Below, one piece after another: positions 42,938 to 49,976 of a stretch of DNA of 49,976 nt. Both the position numbers and the translations under genes were made by a program. Positions within the stretch are counted from its first letter, which is position 1. Every line of letters starts with the position of its first letter. The notes below the pieces were generated by a model, which saw only the letters and a program-made list of their open reading frames with translations, made no database searches and was not told where the DNA came from. The DNA is taken from the sequence record DRR723986_3131; one strand, written 5' to 3'.

Positions 42938-43531
42938 CTACTTAAAGACCTTAAAATTGAAAACCAATTTCTTGGTTTGTATCAGAGTCCGCCAGTCTAT
43001 AAAAAATAGGCAAAAAAGCAGGAAAAAGGCTAATAATAGACTTGCCAATGATTTCCAAGAAACCGCATTATCGATTATAGCCTGGACATTTTCTGCAGCA
43101 TAGGCACCCAAAAACAAGGCAAGCGTATCGCTAGTAAATTTACCTATCAGGAAAGCAGGAATAATATACTTGGGTTGGATTTTTGAAATCCCTCCACCCA
43201 GAAATAGCGGAGTGGTGGGAAGTGGCAACAAGGAATAAACAAGCACCAACAGTTGTCCCTTCCACACATTCTCTTTCATTTTTTCACCAAGAAACTGAAT
43301 GTCATTATTCTTAGACTCTTTCAGGTATTTCTTGGCAAGAAATGGGGTATAGAGCAGAAGAATATACCTGCCTAAAACAGATCCCACCACACCTATCACC
43401 ACTACCAACCAGATATTGAGCTTAAATATGATTTGGAGGAAAACCATAATCGTAAATGCCGGCAGAAACGGAAAAGGGACGATATCAAATAAAAGTGCAC
43501 CTATAAATACCAAAAGATATTGCCACCACAT
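42938..43531 (-). CDS. Multi-pass membrane protein (DedA/VTT-like)
   Basis: Hydrophobic; 'PFPFLPAFT', 'GSVLGRY', 'PLPT'. Confidence 0.7.
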   Translation of the reverse strand: MWWQYLLVFIGALLFDIVPFPFLPAFTIMVFLQIIFKLNIWLVVVIGVVGSVLGRYILLLYTPFLAKKYLKESKNNDIQFLGEKMKENVWKGQLLVLVYSLLPLPTTPLFLGGGISKIQPKYIIPAFLIGKFTSDTLALFLGAYAAENVQAIIDNAVSWKSLASLLLAFFLLFCLFFIDWRTLIQTKKLVFNFKVFK

Positions 43532-43624
43532 GCTTTATGAGTTTTGATTTATTAGTAATTACATATCTGCAATGATGCCAGTAACAGTAACATCTTCGTT
43601 TGCTGGCCTGAAGACCGATGACTG

Positions 43625-43700
43625 AAGCTGCCCCAATGCTTGCTTTAGCTTCCCCTTTTATTGCTTTGAGTTCCCTACTGGCAGGGAAGAAGGTCGACAT
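43625..43700 (-). pseudogene. Possible CsbD/YjbJ-family remnant
   Basis: One minus frame reads GNSKQ*KGKLKQALGQL, resembling CsbD 'GNWKQxKGKxKQxWGxL'. It has an internal stop and is out of frame with ATG 43700. Confidence 0.3.
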
Positions 43701-43833
43701 ATAATAAACAATCTATATGTTATGTTTTGCTGGGAATTTACGGAATTCTAAAATAGCAAGACCAAGTAGATTAATTGAGCTTAGGTCCGCTATCCAGATC
43801 TACATATTCTAAAAAACCGGATTTGATACGACA

Positions 43834-44085
43834 TTAGTAATTCAACTTCCGTTCTTTTAAAAGCTCTTTTAAAGCTTTATCATTTTTAGAATTATTGAAT
43901 AGCTTGAATGCAAAAATCAGCGGGATTAAAGTGAATAACCCTATGGTGTTTTTCCAGATGCTAAAAATTATCACCCCAATCATAACCCCAATAAAAAGCG
44001 CATTTATCAAGGAATTCGTTTTCGCTTTTTTAGCCTTGTCTAGCAGTTCCTGATCTGTTAATGCAGATAGTTCTTCTTTTGTCAT
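43834..44085 (-). CDS. Small conserved membrane protein (83 aa)
   Basis: 'LTDQELL..KK', two TM segments, 'ELLKERKL'. Confidence 0.75.
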   Translation of the reverse strand: MTKEELSALTDQELLDKAKKAKTNSLINALFIGVMIGVIIFSIWKNTIGLFTLIPLIFAFKLFNNSKNDKALKELLKERKLNY

Positions 44086-44166
44086 TTGGTAGTTTTCTGA
44101 TTATGGTTAGAAAAATAAGACTTATGCGTGGTAACCCAAGAGCAAATTTCAATAGATAAAGTTCTA

Positions 44167-44748
44167 TTACCTAAACTGCTTAGGTTTTAGATTATCACGA
44201 GCACTTTCCGCAATTTCCGCAATTCTCTTTTGCCTTGTTTCTGGTCTTTTGGCAGAAAGCACCCAATGCAGTAATAGCTTCTTGTTGGATTTACTAAGGC
44301 TATCAAAGTACTCAAAGGCACCTTGATGATTTGCTAGTTCTTTCTTTAAATCTTCCGGAATTACCAATGCTTCAATTTCATCCAAAATTTCCCAAGACCC
44401 GTTTTCTTTGGCAACTTCAATACTTTTATAGCCTGCTTCCGTCATACGTCCTTGATCAATTAAAGCTTTTACTTTATCCTTATTTATCTTGGACCAATTA
44501 CTTTTTGCTTTTCGCTTGCTGAAATACTGCATGAATTTCTCACTGTCAATTGGCCTTCTGGTGCTATCAATCCAACCAAAGCAAAGTGCTTCATCAACTG
44601 CCTCGCTCCAACTTAGGGTAGTAACTTCTGATGATGCTTTATAATATACAAGCCAAACAGACTGTTGTGACTGATGATTTTTCAATAACCATTCACGCCA
44701 ATCTGTTCGGCTTGTAGGGCAATATGTTTCTGGTTCCTTGTTAGGCAT
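44167..44748 (-). CDS. YdeI/OmpD-associated family protein
   Basis: 'WREWL..NH', 'EALCFGWIDS', 'WSKINK', 'AKRPETRQKR'. Confidence 0.92.
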   Translation of the reverse strand: MPNKEPETYCPTSRTDWREWLLKNHQSQQSVWLVYYKASSEVTTLSWSEAVDEALCFGWIDSTRRPIDSEKFMQYFSKRKAKSNWSKINKDKVKALIDQGRMTEAGYKSIEVAKENGSWEILDEIEALVIPEDLKKELANHQGAFEYFDSLSKSNKKLLLHWVLSAKRPETRQKRIAEIAESARDNLKPKQFR

Positions 44749-44859
44749 TATGTTTTCAATTGTCTAAGGATTGGGTATTTGAGGTGACCTAAAAGATATT
44801 CTAAAATTTAAAGATTATTTTGGCCAATAAATTCTACTAATCCTCATATTCACAGCTAC

Positions 44860-45363
44860 TTAATATTGGATCAAATTTAATAATGATAGTTTTTCCTTTA
44901 TTTCAACATTCTTTAATCCAAGAGTCTTTGCTATAAAGTCCGTGAAGAATATTTTATGACCGTCATTAAGAACAATTTCCGTGTAATTGTAAAAGAAGGT
45001 TGGTAGAGCATACGTCATATTTTCCTCGTCCCATTGTCCCTTATACCTAATGATTTTATTTATGTCTTTAAATCGAAATTCTTTTTCAAGCTTACCATTA
45101 TTCTCAATTCTAATTGTCTGCTTTGAATGGTTTACTATAATTTTTTTCCTTCTGTCATTCAGTTTGTATTGAAAATGTAAAACCAATTGAGGTAGTGCTA
45201 ATAATAGAAAACCAAACCCTAAAAAAAGTCCAATATCTTCTTTAGTTGCGAGAAAGTAAATAAATCCACTAAGTGCCCCAATGTGAAAAATAATTGATTT
45301 TCTAAAAACTCTCCATTCATTTTTTGGGTCAAAATCAAATTCTATTTTAAAGTCTTGCCCCAT
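44860..45363 (-). CDS. Cassette 6: hypothetical membrane protein (2 TM + PH-like domain)
   Basis: ATG 30 nt after box GTTATCCTCAAC; two hydrophobic segments. Confidence 0.7.
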   Translation of the reverse strand: MGQDFKIEFDFDPKNEWRVFRKSIIFHIGALSGFIYFLATKEDIGLFLGFGFLLLALPQLVLHFQYKLNDRRKKIIVNHSKQTIRIENNGKLEKEFRFKDINKIIRYKGQWDEENMTYALPTFFYNYTEIVLNDGHKIFFTDFIAKTLGLKNVEIKEKLSLLNLIQY

Positions 45364-45392
45364 GTTTTAATCGATTCTGTGTTTTTTTCAAA

Positions 45393-45617
45393 GTTGAGGA
45401 TAACGACCCAAGCTTAGCAAGCTCCGATAAAGCTAATGTATCTGCCGGTACTCCCAAAGTATCCAAGTAGCACAGTGCACATAAAGATGATAAATCCTTT
45501 GAGCTGAGCTTAGTAGAACGTACCGATTTTTACCAACCCCAGATTCTTGGTGAAGTTCGCACTGAAATCTGAAAAGTGGCAGTTGGCGCATTCCCCCTCA
45601 GCGATTGTTAGCAAATG
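45393..45617. repeat. attC-like site 5 (tandem, degenerate double site)
   Basis: Plus-strand boxes GTTGAGGATAAC (45393), ATTTTTACCAAC (45526), GTTAGCAAA (45607); stem AAGCTTAGC/GCTGAGCTT. Confidence 0.6.
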
Positions 45618-45619
45618 TA

Positions 45620-46009
45620 TTATGTCGCACGTTTTCTTTCCCGAATTTCGATTGCAATGAGTGTAAAGACAGTAGCGACCAATGGTATTAGGCCGAATGC
45701 TCTGTTCATTTCTCCCTTCGCTCCTTTCTCAAAAATCCCCAATATCATGGGTTCGCTACCAATCGCAACAGGCCCAAGTTCGTAAATTGCAATGTAGACG
45801 AGCATTCCAATTAACATGGTGTTCGCCGTTGTTAAATGTTTTCTAAAGAATAGGCTGAGTAGGATCCCAATAGTTAACTGGATTAAAAGAAATATTCCAA
45901 GTAAAAAAGGAGCCATACCTACTTCTCCACCTGGCAAGTTGGTCGTTCCAATCCAAATCATGAAGAATACAATTGTTAAGCCTGCTTGAAGAAAAATGTA
46001 TTTTATCAT
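45620..46009 (-). CDS. Cassette 5: hypothetical 4-TM membrane protein
   Basis: 129 aa, hydrophobic; flanked by exactly complementary GTTAGCAAA/TTTGCTAAC. Confidence 0.7.
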   Translation of the reverse strand: MIKYIFLQAGLTIVFFMIWIGTTNLPGGEVGMAPFLLGIFLLIQLTIGILLSLFFRKHLTTANTMLIGMLVYIAIYELGPVAIGSEPMILGIFEKGAKGEMNRAFGLIPLVATVFTLIAIEIRERKRAT

Positions 46010-46032
46010 GAGTTCAGTTCTCTGTGCAAGGA

Positions 46033-46095
46033 ATGTTTGCTAACTGTTTGCCTATAGTGCGTATCCCGCAGGGTATGCACTATAACCGTTGTGGC
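46033..46095. repeat. attC-like site 4
   Basis: TAAC...TATAGTGCGTATCC-cgca-GGGTATGCACTATA...GTTG; 14-bp stem with 2 G:T pairs on +. Confidence 0.8.
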
Positions 46096-46823
46096 TAGAT
46101 TTTTATTTTTAAATACTCTCCTATTTCAGAGAATCTATATTTCAATTCAATTATTGGTGTTAATGGTTTCATCACATGAGGTAGCCGGCATTCTTCTATT
46201 ATTTCAATGGAGTTCGGATAAAGGGCAAATTGATTTAGATTAAAGGTGTTGTCGCACTCATTATAATATTCAATCGCAGAATCATATTCATCTTGAGTTA
46301 ATCCCCAATCAGAGTCGTTAAGAACATCTTTAAGTTCAAGGCTTGCTTCATTATACTGCTCCTTTTTGTCTTTGAAAACCATTTCCCTGAATAACCCTGT
46401 AGTGTCAACAATCGAGTTAATATCAAGCCATTTTCCCGTTTGTGTCGAATAATTGAAATAATCTGTCCAACTAGTGCAATACGCTCCACAACCTTCGGCA
46501 CTTACGTTGATTGATAGAATTCCATTTTGATTGTAAGTAACTTGAAAGCCAAGAAAAACAATTTGGTCTCCTGCCCATCTTGTCAGAGTCGAATCAAGAT
46601 TGTCCGTTGGATATTCGTTGTCTGTAAAGCGATTCTTTAGGTCGGTATTTATCAATGAGTCTACTTTCTTATTACCTGAACTAATAATTGGAAAATTCAT
46701 CTTGTCAGATTGAATATCCTTAAATCGCTCACTTTTCTCAAGTCGAAATGTGTCGATTTGAACGCTTTGTCCAAAGGCAATTGTTCCTATGAACAACAAT
46801 ATTATCGTTAGGATTCTCTTCAT
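46095..46823 (-). CDS. Cassette 4: secreted protein, DUF4163/DUF3298 (PdaC/RsiV-like)
   Basis: Signal peptide MKRILTIILLF; 'VTYNQNGILSINVSAEGCGAY...YFNYSTQTG'. Start moved to ATG 46823. Confidence 0.6.
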   Translation of the reverse strand: MKRILTIILLFIGTIAFGQSVQIDTFRLEKSERFKDIQSDKMNFPIISSGNKKVDSLINTDLKNRFTDNEYPTDNLDSTLTRWAGDQIVFLGFQVTYNQNGILSINVSAEGCGAYCTSWTDYFNYSTQTGKWLDINSIVDTTGLFREMVFKDKKEQYNEASLELKDVLNDSDWGLTQDEYDSAIEYYNECDNTFNLNQFALYPNSIEIIEECRLPHVMKPLTPIIELKYRFSEIGEYLKIKI

Positions 46824-46863
46824 TTTCTTATGGAACAAAATGGTGCGGGTATCCATTTTTTTT

Positions 46864-46930
46864 ATGCACGCCAACGTTTGGCTATGAGCAGTAGCGTCTC
46901 ACGGGCGCTATTGCTTATAGGTTTTGTGCA
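46864..46930. repeat. attC-like site 3
   Basis: CAAC...CTATGAGCAGTAGCGTC-tcacg-GGCGCTATTGCTTATAG; 17-bp stem with 3 G:T pairs on +. Confidence 0.8.
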
Positions 46931-47493
46931 ACGTATTTTTTTGCTTCTTTTAATCCTTTCTCATATTCTTTACCGTCACGATTTTCGTCTATTACAGTAA
47001 TCCTCAAGTCAATTAATTCACCGTTATCCTTTAAAAAGAAAAATTTATAGTCTACCACTCCTGTTAAAATCATTGATACAAGAACTCCTTTCTCGTCAGT
47101 GGGAGAGATGTTAGGGTATTCATTAAATGCGATTACTTTTTTAAAATCATTGGTATTTGCTTGGTAGATGTATAGGTTATATGTTTCATTTGCTCTCGCA
47201 CCACTCCCTTGGTAAATGAGAATATCGTTGAATCCGTCAGAGTTCATGTCTTCAAACCGATTTTCAAAATACCCGTTGTAAATAGAAATAGAATCTTTTA
47301 TGATCTCTTGTCCGTTCCGGAATAAGATTATTTCAGTATTCGGTCTCGCCACGTCCATCTCATAATCCGAAAATACTTTAAGCTCAAATTGCGTTTCGCT
47401 CATCGTCCACTTAACTACGTTAATATCCTTTTGTGCATAGCAAGCAACACCTATTAAAATAAGAATTAATGACATAGATATTTTTTTGGTCAT
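46915..47493 (-). CDS. Cassette 3: secreted XAC2610-related protein
   Basis: Signal peptide; 'FEDMNSDGFNDILI...GARANETYNLYIY' Ca-binding-like motif. Start moved to ATG 47493; stop lies inside attC3. Confidence 0.55.
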   Translation of the reverse strand: MTKKISMSLILILIGVACYAQKDINVVKWTMSETQFELKVFSDYEMDVARPNTEIILFRNGQEIIKDSISIYNGYFENRFEDMNSDGFNDILIYQGSGARANETYNLYIYQANTNDFKKVIAFNEYPNISPTDEKGVLVSMILTGVVDYKFFFLKDNGELIDLRITVIDENRDGKEYEKGLKEAKKYVAQNL

Positions 47494-47559
47494 ATGCTCC
47501 AACGCTCTTCTTATGCGTATTGTCCTGAAGGGAATTGCGTATTGGTCTTCTTGCCCCAT
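47492..47559. repeat. attC-like site 2
   Basis: CAAC...TATGCG(t)ATT(g)TCC-tgaa-GGGAATTGCGTA...CTTGCC; 3 G:T pairs and two extrahelical bases on +. Confidence 0.7.
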
Positions 47560-47564
47560 GATTC

Positions 47565-48221
47565 TCATTTCATCTCTATTCTTTTTGGAGTCACTGCTCC
47601 ATCGGCAGAACGAAAATCGAATGTTACCAGATTTTCATTTTTTTCAATGTTTTCGAATAAATCTGTCAATCTCAAAACTTGATTCTCACTTATAGAATTA
47701 TCAATTTGTTTAGGTGCAAATTCAAGTATATTTTTTTTATCTGTCAAATGATCTAATAAAACTAAAGAAGTGAATGTACTGTCGGAAAAATAAAGCAAGT
47801 AGTCTTTCTCTATGTCGCCCCAAACAAATTGCTCATGGGGGATTCTCTTTATTTCCTTTCCTATTTCTTTGTTTATAAAAACCATATCTGGTGATGCACA
47901 ACATCCACTAATCCATTCGTACTGAAACAAGAGGTAGTTTTTGTACTCTTTCAAAAAACCAAGGCCTGCTCTTTGACAACCATATACCGTTTCATTTTCA
48001 CAAGATTTGAGAATCACTTTTTCCTTATTCTCAAATGTCAACCAAGAAGAATCACAGTTCCATTGCCAATAAAGTCGAGAGCCATTTTGAAAATTTTGAA
48101 TTTCACATTTATATCGGTTCTCTTCCACAATTTCCATACTGTCACAAGCGCACTCTAACTGTTGCGAAAACATTTGGAAGCTTGTTAGAAATAAAGCCAA
48201 AATAAAGATTGTCCTTTTCAT
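47565..48221 (-). CDS. Cassette 2: Cys-rich secreted hypothetical protein
   Basis: Signal peptide MKRTIFILALF; 'LYWQWNCDSSWLTFEN', 'SGCC'. Start moved to ATG 48221. Confidence 0.7.
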   Translation of the reverse strand: MKRTIFILALFLTSFQMFSQQLECACDSMEIVEENRYKCEIQNFQNGSRLYWQWNCDSSWLTFENKEKVILKSCENETVYGCQRAGLGFLKEYKNYLLFQYEWISGCCASPDMVFINKEIGKEIKRIPHEQFVWGDIEKDYLLYFSDSTFTSLVLLDHLTDKKNILEFAPKQIDNSISENQVLRLTDLFENIEKNENLVTFDFRSADGAVTPKRIEMK

Positions 48222-48225
48222 TTTA

Positions 48226-48365
48226 ATGTTTGGCAACGGTTTCGGGCTTGGCGCTCGGGCGGGTTTCGGAGCACAAAACTGTCAACCTGCACTTAACTTG
48301 AATAGAAGTAGAAAGCTCCAAGTTTCAACTTCACCCCGTCTGACGCAAAACCCGTGTTGGGGCAT
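48226..48365. repeat. attC-like site 1 (long, 140 bp)
   Basis: CAAC...CGGGCTTGGCG-c-TCGGGCGGG ... CCCGTCTGA-CGC-AAAACCCG-t-GTTG; G:T pairs on +, long variable centre. Confidence 0.8.
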
Positions 48366-48371
48366 CGTTTT

Positions 48372-49808
48372 TTATTTGTTCATTTTAATTACTCCTGCAA
48401 ATGTTGCAGCCCAAATAATTCCATTTTTGTCCTTTGTTACCTTCATTACATGAATGCTAGGAACTTCAGAGTTTTCGGGCGTATATGTTTCCCATTTATC
48501 ATTTTCTATATCGTAACGAATAAGTCCAACGCTATTTAATGCAATCCATAAAACTCCATTCTCTTCGTCAAGCAGGAAATCATTTATATCGTTCTTAGTG
48601 AATAGTTCGGAATTCTTTGGTCTAATAGAAGTCCATTCACCATTTGGTTTTAAAAGCCACATTCCTGCTTTTGTCTTGTCTTTACTGTAAAGGTCGAACC
48701 AAAAGTTACCCTTACTATCTTCAAATACTTGCGAGATTGAGCCTTTTTTTAATGGCGAGTCAGATTCGTTAAATTCAATCGTTTGGTCTTTATCAATTCT
48801 GATATTACCGTCAAATGTTCCAATCCATAAACGGTCTTGATTGTCAAGATAAACACCTGATATTTTATTGGAAGGAAGCGCTGAATTAGAGGTGTCAATT
48901 ACACTCCAATTTTCACCATCATACTTTGCCAAGCCATCCCATGAAGTCAAGAAAACATTGCCATAATTGTCTGAAAAGATTTTTCTTGGCCATTCTATAG
49001 GAGAATTGATTGAGTCATAAACAGTCCATTTATTCCCATCGAATTTATATGCGTCCCAACCTGCCGCTAACCAAATGTTGCCTTTACTGTCCGTTGCAGC
49101 ATGTCTTATTGAAGATGCTATGTTTTGGTTGTATTTGACTGGTTTAATAGCTGAATTTGTAACGTCAAAAATTTCCATTTTCTCATCAGTCATTCTTACA
49201 AGCCCATTATCTGTACCAATCCATATGTTGTTATTAGTTGAAATAACTGTTCTCGTCATATCCCATGGAAGGTCTGAGTTCGACTGAGATAAAACTGTCC
49301 ATTGAACAGACAAATCTTTTTCCTTTGAGCCTTTGATGTCTGGGGTGCCAACAGATTTAAAATTGGTGCTATTCTTAAAGTCAAATGAAACCCTTCTAAT
49401 TCCAAATTTTCCATCTTGAAAAACAAGTTCGAGAGAAACTGAGGCACTTTGAGCCTTATTGTCCTTCATGGAGGGAGTCCATTTAGGCATTGAATTAATT
49501 GCGTTTTGTAATCCAAGTTTTTCGGAAGACACATCTGTGCTGTTCTCAGAGCTTACGAGACATGAATTCCCTAATGTGTCGACTAAAATTTGAACTCTTA
49601 TTAACCCATTTAGTTTTTTGAGAGACTTCTGGTTCAAACCGCTTAGTATGCTCTCAACAGCATCTTGAGGAACTTCAGCTTTTGGTTCACCACAATCAAG
49701 ACAAAAACGGCTCAATTTACACTCATCATATTTTTCAGGATAAAGATGTTGTCCAAATACTGTTTGTACCGTCAAAAAAAGTAATCCGATTAGGAATGTA
49801 TGCTTCAT
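48372..49808 (-). CDS. Cassette 1: secreted protein, TonB C-terminal-like domain + Reg_prop beta-propeller
   Basis: Signal peptide; 'MPKWTPSMKDNK' TonB_C-like; repeated 'D.KGNIW', 'LWIGT', 'NS.LPS' blades. Confidence 0.75.
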   Translation of the reverse strand: MKHTFLIGLLFLTVQTVFGQHLYPEKYDECKLSRFCLDCGEPKAEVPQDAVESILSGLNQKSLKKLNGLIRVQILVDTLGNSCLVSSENSTDVSSEKLGLQNAINSMPKWTPSMKDNKAQSASVSLELVFQDGKFGIRRVSFDFKNSTNFKSVGTPDIKGSKEKDLSVQWTVLSQSNSDLPWDMTRTVISTNNNIWIGTDNGLVRMTDEKMEIFDVTNSAIKPVKYNQNIASSIRHAATDSKGNIWLAAGWDAYKFDGNKWTVYDSINSPIEWPRKIFSDNYGNVFLTSWDGLAKYDGENWSVIDTSNSALPSNKISGVYLDNQDRLWIGTFDGNIRIDKDQTIEFNESDSPLKKGSISQVFEDSKGNFWFDLYSKDKTKAGMWLLKPNGEWTSIRPKNSELFTKNDINDFLLDEENGVLWIALNSVGLIRYDIENDKWETYTPENSEVPSIHVMKVTKDKNGIIWAATFAGVIKMNK

Positions 49809-49827
49809 GTAATTCGTTTGTTTTTAA

Positions 49828-49966
49828 ATGCCCCCCAACACTTATAAATACCCACCTCCGCCTTCCCCCCTCTAAACCTACTAAACTTTTCTAAATCCCA
49901 CATCACCCTTTAGAGTGAATAAACCCACTTTATCCGACAACAAACGGATACTATCGAATACAAACG
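49828..49966 (-). promoter_or_regulatory. attI-like primary site and upstream direct repeats
   Basis: Minus-strand TATTTATAAGT|GTTGGGGGGCAT has no preceding palindrome; direct repeats CGACAACAAACG (49935) and CGAATACAAACG (49955). Confidence 0.55.
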
Positions 49967-49976
49967 ACTAGCTACC

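Follow-up and report, generated by a model that had tools for sequence, protein, structure and literature searches.

Near one end of a 49,976-nucleotide stretch of an Algoriphagus chromosome (sequence record DRR723986_3131, referred to over its whole length as the window), six co-oriented genes each stand behind a short box. This raises the question of whether the genes are mobile cassettes and, if so, which enzyme moves them. The seven 12-nt boxes lie on the minus strand where the initial annotation had placed them, with their G at positions 49839, 48237, 47503, 46875, 46044, 45537 and 45404, and six co-oriented minus-strand open reading frames (ORFs) stand behind them. The region is also AT-richer, as had been noted, with a GC content of 0.354–0.364 in the bins between 42001 and 48000 and of 0.378–0.424 in the remaining bins. 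The box motif GTTR-N5-HAY alone is not enriched, with 60 matches in the window against 72.4 ± 8.4 in shuffled sequences; the boxes are significant because they form the 5' ends of gene cassettes. The stretch from 49839 to about 44840 is probably an integron-type mobile cassette array, located at an orphan attI site and served in trans by an IntI-related, Bacteroidota-specific recombinase. The nearest genome is that of Algoriphagus winogradskyi DSM 15360 (G001), which has 70% of sampled words in common with the window, and everything to the right of position 49976 was read from this genome and from other relatives.

Read along the minus strand, a unit consists of G↓TT (the arrow marks the breakpoint) with the rest of the 5' box, a short leader, one ORF, an R'' element ending in AAC, an imperfect hairpin and a terminal ...AAAC(C)G↓TT. 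The R'' element just past the stop codon repeats, in reverse complement, the 5' box of the same unit. In the window this is seen for cassette 1 (GTTGGGGGGCAT and ATGCCCCAAC for 5' box and R'') and cassette 5 (GTTAGCAAACAT and ACATTTGCTAAC), and in A. winogradskyi for the pairs GTTACCACCT and AGGTGGTAAC, GTTGTGGGTA and TACCCACAAC, GTTATAGGGC and GCTCTATAAC, and GTTAGCGGT and ACCGCTAAC. Over 12 cassettes from these two genomes, the pairing of a 5' box with its own R'' has a mean of 8.3, compared with 2.9 for non-self pairs, and a sum as high as the observed one did not arise in any of 20,000 permutations. This is how integron cassettes are built. Such complementarity is meaningful only if the cassette is circular or free, so that its attC can close on its own 5' end.

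Seventeen attC-type sites, some of them related, were delimited and aligned arm by arm. A long class, mostly of 131–133 nt, has the internal motif CTCCGAAA in common, and the internal motifs shared by most long sites indicate that they form one homologous attC family. The spacers had been described as palindromes of unrelated sequence; they are imperfect hairpins of about 57–135 nt, but most of the long ones are homologous to each other. The sites had also been called non-canonical, none of them matching GTTRRRY. Their order R''-L''-loop-L'-R' with AAC/GTT ends is nevertheless that of a classical attC, and it is the recombinase that is non-canonical. In the folds, an internal loop stands between the R''/R' stem and a mismatched L''/L' stem, beyond which is the variable loop, and at least five sites of this architecture, as in integrons, stand in the array.

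The bottom strand forms the more stable fold in 9 of 10 sites. The stems contain spaced mismatches, mostly G.T on the bottom strand, together with a few single-base bulges. Among transition-type mismatches, 26 are G.T on the bottom strand and 8 on the top strand (binomial p = 0.003 for the 17 sites, some of which are related); the hairpin of attC3, CTATAAGCAATAGCG/CGCTACTGCTCATAG, contains two bottom-strand G.T positions. The bias in G.T positions and in fold stability fits a folded bottom-strand substrate.

The initial annotation had suggested that relatives be compared for gain and loss of cassettes at G↓TT, and the content of the array changes exactly there in A. winogradskyi and A. halophilus. 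Within the shared part of the array, the window and A. winogradskyi are 98% identical. A. winogradskyi is without cassette 1 and has a different cassette, for a DMP19-like protein, at that place. Ahead of cassette 2, with its insertion point exactly at ...AAACCG↓T, it contains an extra 705-bp cassette. Between the two, the 123-bp attC1 core is 100% identical, with different flanks on both sides, and the left break is right at ↓AAC. Cassette 2 matches A. halophilus (L059) with 95.2% identity over 726 bp, the match starting at the G of GTTGCC, against an identity of only ~80% between the ssb regions of A. winogradskyi and A. halophilus. In A. halophilus, this cassette is situated directly at the ssb-proximal attI-like site and has an intact short attC with the R'' CATTTGGCAAC, which is degraded to GGCAAG in the window. 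Two other loci, L073 and L088, have a common cassette and diverge after G↓TT.

Assembled contigs from public metagenome runs were compared in the same way (X5, X7 and X8, from three studies, and X3, a fourth run). Cassette 1 is present in contigs of X5, X7 and X8 with 98–99% identity and other neighbors, and the match always stops at 49839. Beyond this position, X5 and X8 continue with the 3' arm of another attC (...GCCAAAAC↓GTT), and the X7 contig has another ~713-nt unit upstream of cassette 1. X5 also contains high-depth short contigs on the 3' arm of attC1 with varied continuations. The attC3 hairpin recurs in X3 and X8, where the continuations after ...CCAAAC differ. A contig from X3 is collinear with the window over cassettes 4 to 6, and its cassette 4 begins with GTTGTGGCTA. 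This start is a perfect complement of the R'' TAGCCACAAC, which indicates that the first ~48 nt of cassette 4 have been replaced in the window; the leader at 46875–46827 is chimeric. A break at R'' is seen for a second time in X8, where an attC4-type hairpin follows cassette 1 and its R''. Breakpoints at G↓TT, the crossover point of integrons, are found in A. winogradskyi, in A. halophilus, in the L073/L088 pair and in contigs of three metagenome runs.

The right end of the array is formed by a region (49840–49976, minus strand) that ends in an attI-like site (...TATTTATAAGTG↓TT, with the G at 49839) and has matches in A. winogradskyi and other Algoriphagus loci. It is the upstream region of a divergent ssb paralog, and ssb itself lies past the end of the window. 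The region matches three places in A. winogradskyi, each adjoining an ssb copy, and the array of that genome has 2.5 copies. A separate ssb on another contig of the same genome scores higher on the SSB family model than the array-linked gene, which is therefore an additional copy. An 18-mer from the ssb-upstream region recovers the same arrangement in ~20 Algoriphagus loci and a few metagenome contigs. Across the aligned Algoriphagus loci, ...AGTTGCGTATATACAAGTG↓TT is kept beside ssb and unrelated sequence follows right after GTT; the site in the window is more degenerate than that of A. winogradskyi. Of 25 attI instances, among which two locus pairs are near-duplicates, 13 are followed by a first cassette whose 5' box and R'' pair with no more than 1 mismatch in 10 nt. 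Of the 121 genomes sampled for the genus, 98 have the ssb locus together with its upstream region, as do 79 of the 81 of high quality. Housekeeping genes flank the arrays, a GH92, peptidase or acylase gene at one end and the gene for a 197-aa membrane protein at the other.

A third docking site, an orphan by the sdh genes, is present in A. winogradskyi. It consists of a perfect palindrome, ACGAAAC-TA-GTTTCGT, followed by ATAGCGACTCG↓TT and a cassette with a 10/10 pair. Further along this array are DUF4304, CdiI_3 and Imm27 cassettes (L184, contig C11, 3286–4779), which show that some Algoriphagus arrays hold orphan immunity genes of polymorphic-toxin systems. As a separate observation, the module of ssb and docking site is repeated two to three times a few kb apart within arrays, on contig C3 of A. 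winogradskyi (L013/L014) and in L082, L088, G241, G242 and G202; its right edge is G↓TT, and on the left it extends to just beyond the stop codon of ssb.

The initial annotation had suggested looking for a recombinase to the right of position 49976. None lies just to the right of the array; the nearest genome has ssb and housekeeping genes at that place. A pattern search for long attC sites revealed further sites in A. winogradskyi and other genomes. On contig C5 of A. winogradskyi, the stop codon of a 454-aa tyrosine recombinase is followed directly by ...ATATACGAAACTAGTTGCGTATAGCGACTCG↓TT, and the consensus of this recombinase-side attI, ...AGTTGCGTATAGCGACTCG↓TT, is that of the ssb-side site. 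Behind it stand a cassette (5' box GTTAGCGGT, R'' ...GCTAAC), an attC of the same family and the next cassette. The same layout is found behind homologs of 455–461 aa in the genomes G204, G221 and G131. Behind a class of 372–382-aa recombinases, there is a variant site ending in ...AATAAGTT↓, which resembles the site beside some ssb genes, and one cassette occurs in two genomes, in the first at the site of a 459-aa enzyme and in the second at that of a 377-aa enzyme. An attC from ssb-linked arrays of another species matches the attC of the C5 array with 94.4% identity over 125 bp, and the two arms of attC1 in the window both have 85–88% identity with an attC that G221 carries in its recombinase-headed array. 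In the recombinase-headed arrays, the attI follows the stop codon and the cassettes are co-directional with the recombinase gene, an arrangement other than the divergent layout of integrons. The breakpoints at G↓TT, the cassettes shared across species and metagenomes, the attI-like site and the non-IntI recombinase at the head of sister arrays fit the integron-like gene-capture platform that the initial annotation had proposed, one that standard attC models may miss and that had been set beside rAID clusters with XerD-like recombinases.

Among the NCBIfam models, the 454-aa recombinase type matches the integron integrase model TIGR02249 first (216 bits, cut-off 265), and it scores 208–228 bits with NF040815, XerA/"integron integrase" (cut-off 220). 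The closest solved structure by sequence is that of Vibrio IntI4 (Protein Data Bank code 2A3V, E = 1e-38), followed by 4A8E and 5HXY. In an alignment with two true IntI proteins, the catalytic residues are kept, and ~38 residues of the IntI insertion are missing. The N terminus consists of a repeated module of ~80 aa, present once in proteins of 372–395 aa, twice in those of 454–475 aa and three times in proteins of ~550 aa from other genera. The two-module region has a confident predicted fold (mean pLDDT 79.5), for which a Foldseek search of the Protein Data Bank returned nothing at E <= 0.001. The best rows from VIA-align were the N-domain of T4 UvsW (Z 6.8) and XPB (Z 6.0), both below the reliable level of the tool and to be taken as a lead only.

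Of 401 sampled Bacteroidia genomes, 212 have a homolog at E <= 1e-45, as do 130 of 199 genera, a tally that includes one genome flagged as unpublished (G378) and otherwise unused. The nearest ESM Atlas clusters are mostly from Bacteroidota. Distant homologs have a palindrome and ...(C)TACG↓TT downstream, and a self-complementary unit with an exact 10-nt match follows in 3 of 17 loci, compared with 0.10 expected.

Two further tyrosine recombinases were observed. One, of 307 aa and 33% identical to the 454-aa protein, stands divergently beside an attC and a cassette on a 1.7-kb contig of A. winogradskyi (L010, contig C19) and recurs at the end of another contig (L009, start of C2). This protein might represent a third class of array-linked recombinase, or else have inserted into an attC. 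The other is a 338-aa frame with one in-frame TGA (G001:C2:674602–675441). At near-identical scores, it recurs across several species, in at least seven further Algoriphagus genomes, and could be a pseudogene that is conserved, a pair of adjacent ORFs or a case of recoding.

These observations suggest how the array might work. A free cassette would be a circle, and its folded attC would pair R'' with the G and the cassette's own 5' end. Insertion and excision would take place at G↓TT, by exchange between attI and attC or between two attC sites, and the folded bottom strand is the most likely substrate. Rather than a classical integron integrase, the enzyme would probably be the IntI-related tyrosine recombinase, of 372–475 aa in Algoriphagus, without the IntI insertion and with one to three N-terminal modules. 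It would head its own attI and co-directional array elsewhere in the genome and act in trans on the orphan docking sites. The cassette anatomy, the breakpoints, the shared cassettes, the common attI and attC families and the strand bias of the hairpins are seen in the sequences; that this recombinase is the catalyst, that it acts in trans and that circular intermediates and single-stranded substrates occur are inferred.

Several results weigh against such an array. Within the window itself, four of the six cassettes (2, 3, 4 and 6) fail the 5'/R'' test. The failures of cassettes 2 and 4 are accounted for by a mutated R'' and a replaced leader, respectively, and cassettes 3 and 6 remain without a matching R''. 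Fold energies relative to shuffled sequences are weak, with z values from -3.7 to +0.2 and only 4 of 10 below -2. RNAalifold on a MAFFT alignment, in which the hairpins were not aligned in register, gave no consensus structure. A scan for ungapped stems, too insensitive for these sites, found 2 in the array (0.31 per kb), against 6 over the remaining 43.6 kb (0.14 per kb). For two hairpin cores, the genes to which they are joined differ and the break falls at R'' (...↓AAC), which the classical one-point crossover does not predict. The left edge of the duplicated ssb module has no GTT/AAC signature, so that the duplication fits the proposed exchange poorly. No recombinase was found in cis: in tblastn searches, the two true IntI proteins had no tyrosine-recombinase hit in the window, in the corresponding region of A. 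winogradskyi or in the ssb-linked loci, and the 454-aa protein had no hit among the loci recovered by the 18-mer. The recombinase was read in A. winogradskyi and other relatives only. For the distant homologs, allowing one mismatch gave only 7 of 17 loci, against ~2–2.6 expected.

A classical attC-site cluster without an integron integrase (CALIN) would explain the site architecture and the G↓TT crossover, which are those of attC, if the cassettes had been moved by a canonical IntI that was since lost or is carried on transient plasmids, the tyrosine recombinases being bystanders. CALINs without an integrase are common, according to the IntegronFinder 2.0 report, and an IntI that scores above the TIGR02249 cut-off is present in 3 of the 151 genomes sampled from the same family. 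Within the genus, however, no IntI above this cut-off was found in any of the 121 sampled Algoriphagus genomes, single-contig ones included, and yet the turnover is recent, occurring between genomes that are 98% identical. The IntI genes of two relatives (G121 and G039) have no clear array adjoining them and no ssb there. In addition, bystanders would not explain why an attI immediately follows the non-IntI recombinase's stop codon, as it does in several genomes and for two classes. We therefore regard the CALIN explanation as unlikely.

The breaks at R'' raise another alternative, in which the hairpin cores between R'' and R' are themselves mobile or exchangeable and the mosaicism is mostly core swapping or homologous recombination between cores. 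The identical 123-bp core that lies between different genes in the window and in A. winogradskyi, with its left break at ↓AAC, and the R'' of cassette 1 joined to an attC4-type hairpin in X8 are what this predicts; the cores are a homologous family, and as repeats they break assemblies. Left unexplained are the complementarity of a cassette's own 5' box and R'' and the movement of whole units of gene and site to the attI-like site in another species. As the main process, core swapping is improbable, but it could coexist with an integron-type array, for instance through an occasional R'' crossover involving the other strand. It is harder still to believe in a static island of small genes with terminator hairpins, whose strain differences would have arisen by ordinary deletion and homologous recombination. 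The hairpins do stand just past stop codons, where they could terminate transcription, and the box motif by itself is not enriched. Breakpoints that fall within 2 nt of G↓TT in A. winogradskyi, A. halophilus and three metagenome runs, together with the permutation test and shuffled controls, speak against it, as do strand-biased G.T positions, which are not predicted for a terminator on the antisense strand. An integron-type cassette array served in trans remains the explanation that we favor.

The units of the array all lie on the minus strand. Cassette 1 with attC1 (48237–49838) encodes a 478-aa secreted protein with Reg_prop repeats (49808–48372; Pfam PF07494). Its attC1 (48237–48365), of the 131–133-nt class, has the R'' ...CCCCAAC and the arms CGGGTTTTGCG.../...CGCCAAGCCCG, followed by AAACCG↓TT. 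Cassette 2 (47503–48236) contains a 218-aa lipoprotein-like ORF (48221–47565) and a short degraded attC2 (47559–47503), and cassette 3 (46875–47502) contains a 191-aa secreted ORF (47490–46915) and the short attC3 (46928–46875). Cassette 4 (46044–46874) has a 253-aa secreted ORF (46856–46095) and the short attC4 (46095–46044), which carries the R'' already described. Cassette 5 (45537–46043) has a 129-aa membrane ORF (46009–45620) and attC5 (45614–45537), with a 5'/R'' match of 10 of 12. Between the boxes at 45537 and 45404 is a unit of 133 nt (45404–45536), the length of the long attC class, with no credible ORF and no R'' that matches its 5' box; it may be a remnant or an empty unit. The boundaries at 45537 and 45404 are without comparative support, as A. 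winogradskyi and the metagenome contig of run X3 are collinear there. Cassette 6 (44840–45403, end approximate) has the 5' box GTTATCCTCAAC, a 167-aa membrane ORF (45363–44860) and a degenerate 3' site, with TGAGGATTAG downstream in place of the expected TGAGGATAAC. None of the six window cassette proteins matches an immunity family in Pfam. A search of 43500–49976 with Rfam in E-value mode gave two chance-level matches to eukaryotic RNA families and nothing else.

Beyond cassette 6, positions 43834–44748 on the minus strand may hold old degenerate cassettes, with a YdeI/OmdA-family gene (44748–44167) and an 83-aa ORF (44085–43834); no attC was recognized in this interval. The 83-aa ORF is followed by a conserved flank gene (43531–42938). 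In other species, the array ends at the gene for the 197-aa membrane protein (MWWQY...), and by this marker the array in the window may extend to about 43.6 kb. The YdeI/OmdA gene is 79% identical at the DNA level to that of a genome of another family, against 68–72% within the genus, which suggests horizontal transfer or an old cassette. A stretch of ~65 bp between the array and the flank gene (43564–43627) has many matches of 76–82% identity in several Algoriphagus genomes and may be a small dispersed repeat.

A broader proposal, which we put forward tentatively, is that the Bacteroidota possess a widespread integron-type capture lineage of their own, sister or parallel to integrons. In such a lineage, an IntI-related recombinase without the insertion may read folded attC sites by means of its repeated N-terminal modules, with their faint likeness to the structure-specific DNA-binding domains of UvsW and XPB, one recombinase would serve several orphan docking sites, one of them tied to ssb, and exchange would occur at both R'' and R'. 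If true, this lineage would explain the near-absence of integrons in surveys of the phylum and supply a mechanism for rAID-type arrays. According to the IntegronFinder 2.0 report (Neron et al. 2022), the Bacteroidetes are nearly without integrons, with In0 elements only in earlier work and one complete integron, in Salinibacter ruber. Integron surveys define the system by IntI, so that the recombinase of the present arrays is excluded by design. Should the mechanism hold, the known range of integron-type gene capture would widen, the rAID immunity arrays of gut Bacteroidales would gain a testable mechanism, and the arrays would constitute a natural experiment on a tyrosine recombinase that reads folded single-stranded sites without the IntI insertion. 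The accessory ssb by the docking site would offer a handle on the management of single-stranded DNA during such recombination. Among titles and abstract openings of the literature, no such system was found for Algoriphagus or Cytophagales, nor integrons in Algoriphagus, and no work was found that joins rAID, integron, tyrosine recombinase and immunity.

With integrons, the array has in common the co-oriented single-ORF cassettes, the attC order R''-L''-loop-L'-R', the crossover at G↓TT, a dedicated first insertion site, the complementarity of R'' and the cassette's own 5' end, a bias toward bottom-strand folding and a recombinase whose catalytic core is most like IntI. Its homologous attC sites also invite comparison with the VCRs of Vibrio, which belong to sedentary chromosomal integrons with homologous attCs. 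In contrast to IntI, the Algoriphagus recombinase is without the insertion, scores below the IntI cut-off and has repeated N-terminal modules. The cassettes are co-directional with the recombinase, breaks occur also at R'', and a single Algoriphagus genome has several orphan docking sites (ssb, sdh) in addition to the recombinase's own. Archaeal XerA, which resolves chromosome dimers at dif, resembles the recombinase core, as judged by the NF040815 score and the structures 4A8E and 5HXY; unlike XerA, the Algoriphagus gene heads cassette arrays and has an extra N-terminal region. As in a CALIN, there are at least two attC-type sites and no integron integrase nearby (tblastn with two true IntI proteins over the 49,976-bp window). 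CALINs are regarded as decayed integrons by Neron et al. 2022, whereas the Algoriphagus array has a docking site conserved across the genus and shows recent turnover.

The closest parallel outside integrons is rAID-1, the recombinase-associated acquired interbacterial defense clusters of gut Bacteroidales. The rAID-1 texts (10.1101/471110; PMC12247911) describe a tyrosine recombinase, annotated as XerD-like, that heads co-oriented short genes of low GC content, with conserved intergenic motifs said to be reminiscent of integrons, and the immunity-type cargo of some Algoriphagus arrays (CdiI_3, Imm27, DUF4304) is a further likeness. The rAID-1 definition, as given by Ross et al. 2019 (10.1101/471110), includes a recombinase at least 44% identical to B. 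fragilis BF9343_RS08045, with close homologs reported only in Bacteroidales. It also involves at least two co-directional genes with a GC content of at most 41%; the six ORFs of the window are at 0.354–0.364, and the rest of the window is itself only at ~0.40. The window differs from rAID-1 in having no recombinase in cis and no cassette protein with a Pfam match to an immunity family. The parts of the rAID-1 texts available to us mention no crossover point, folded site or orphan docking site. The reading given in the initial annotation is essentially right, and the array is integron-like and related to rAID.

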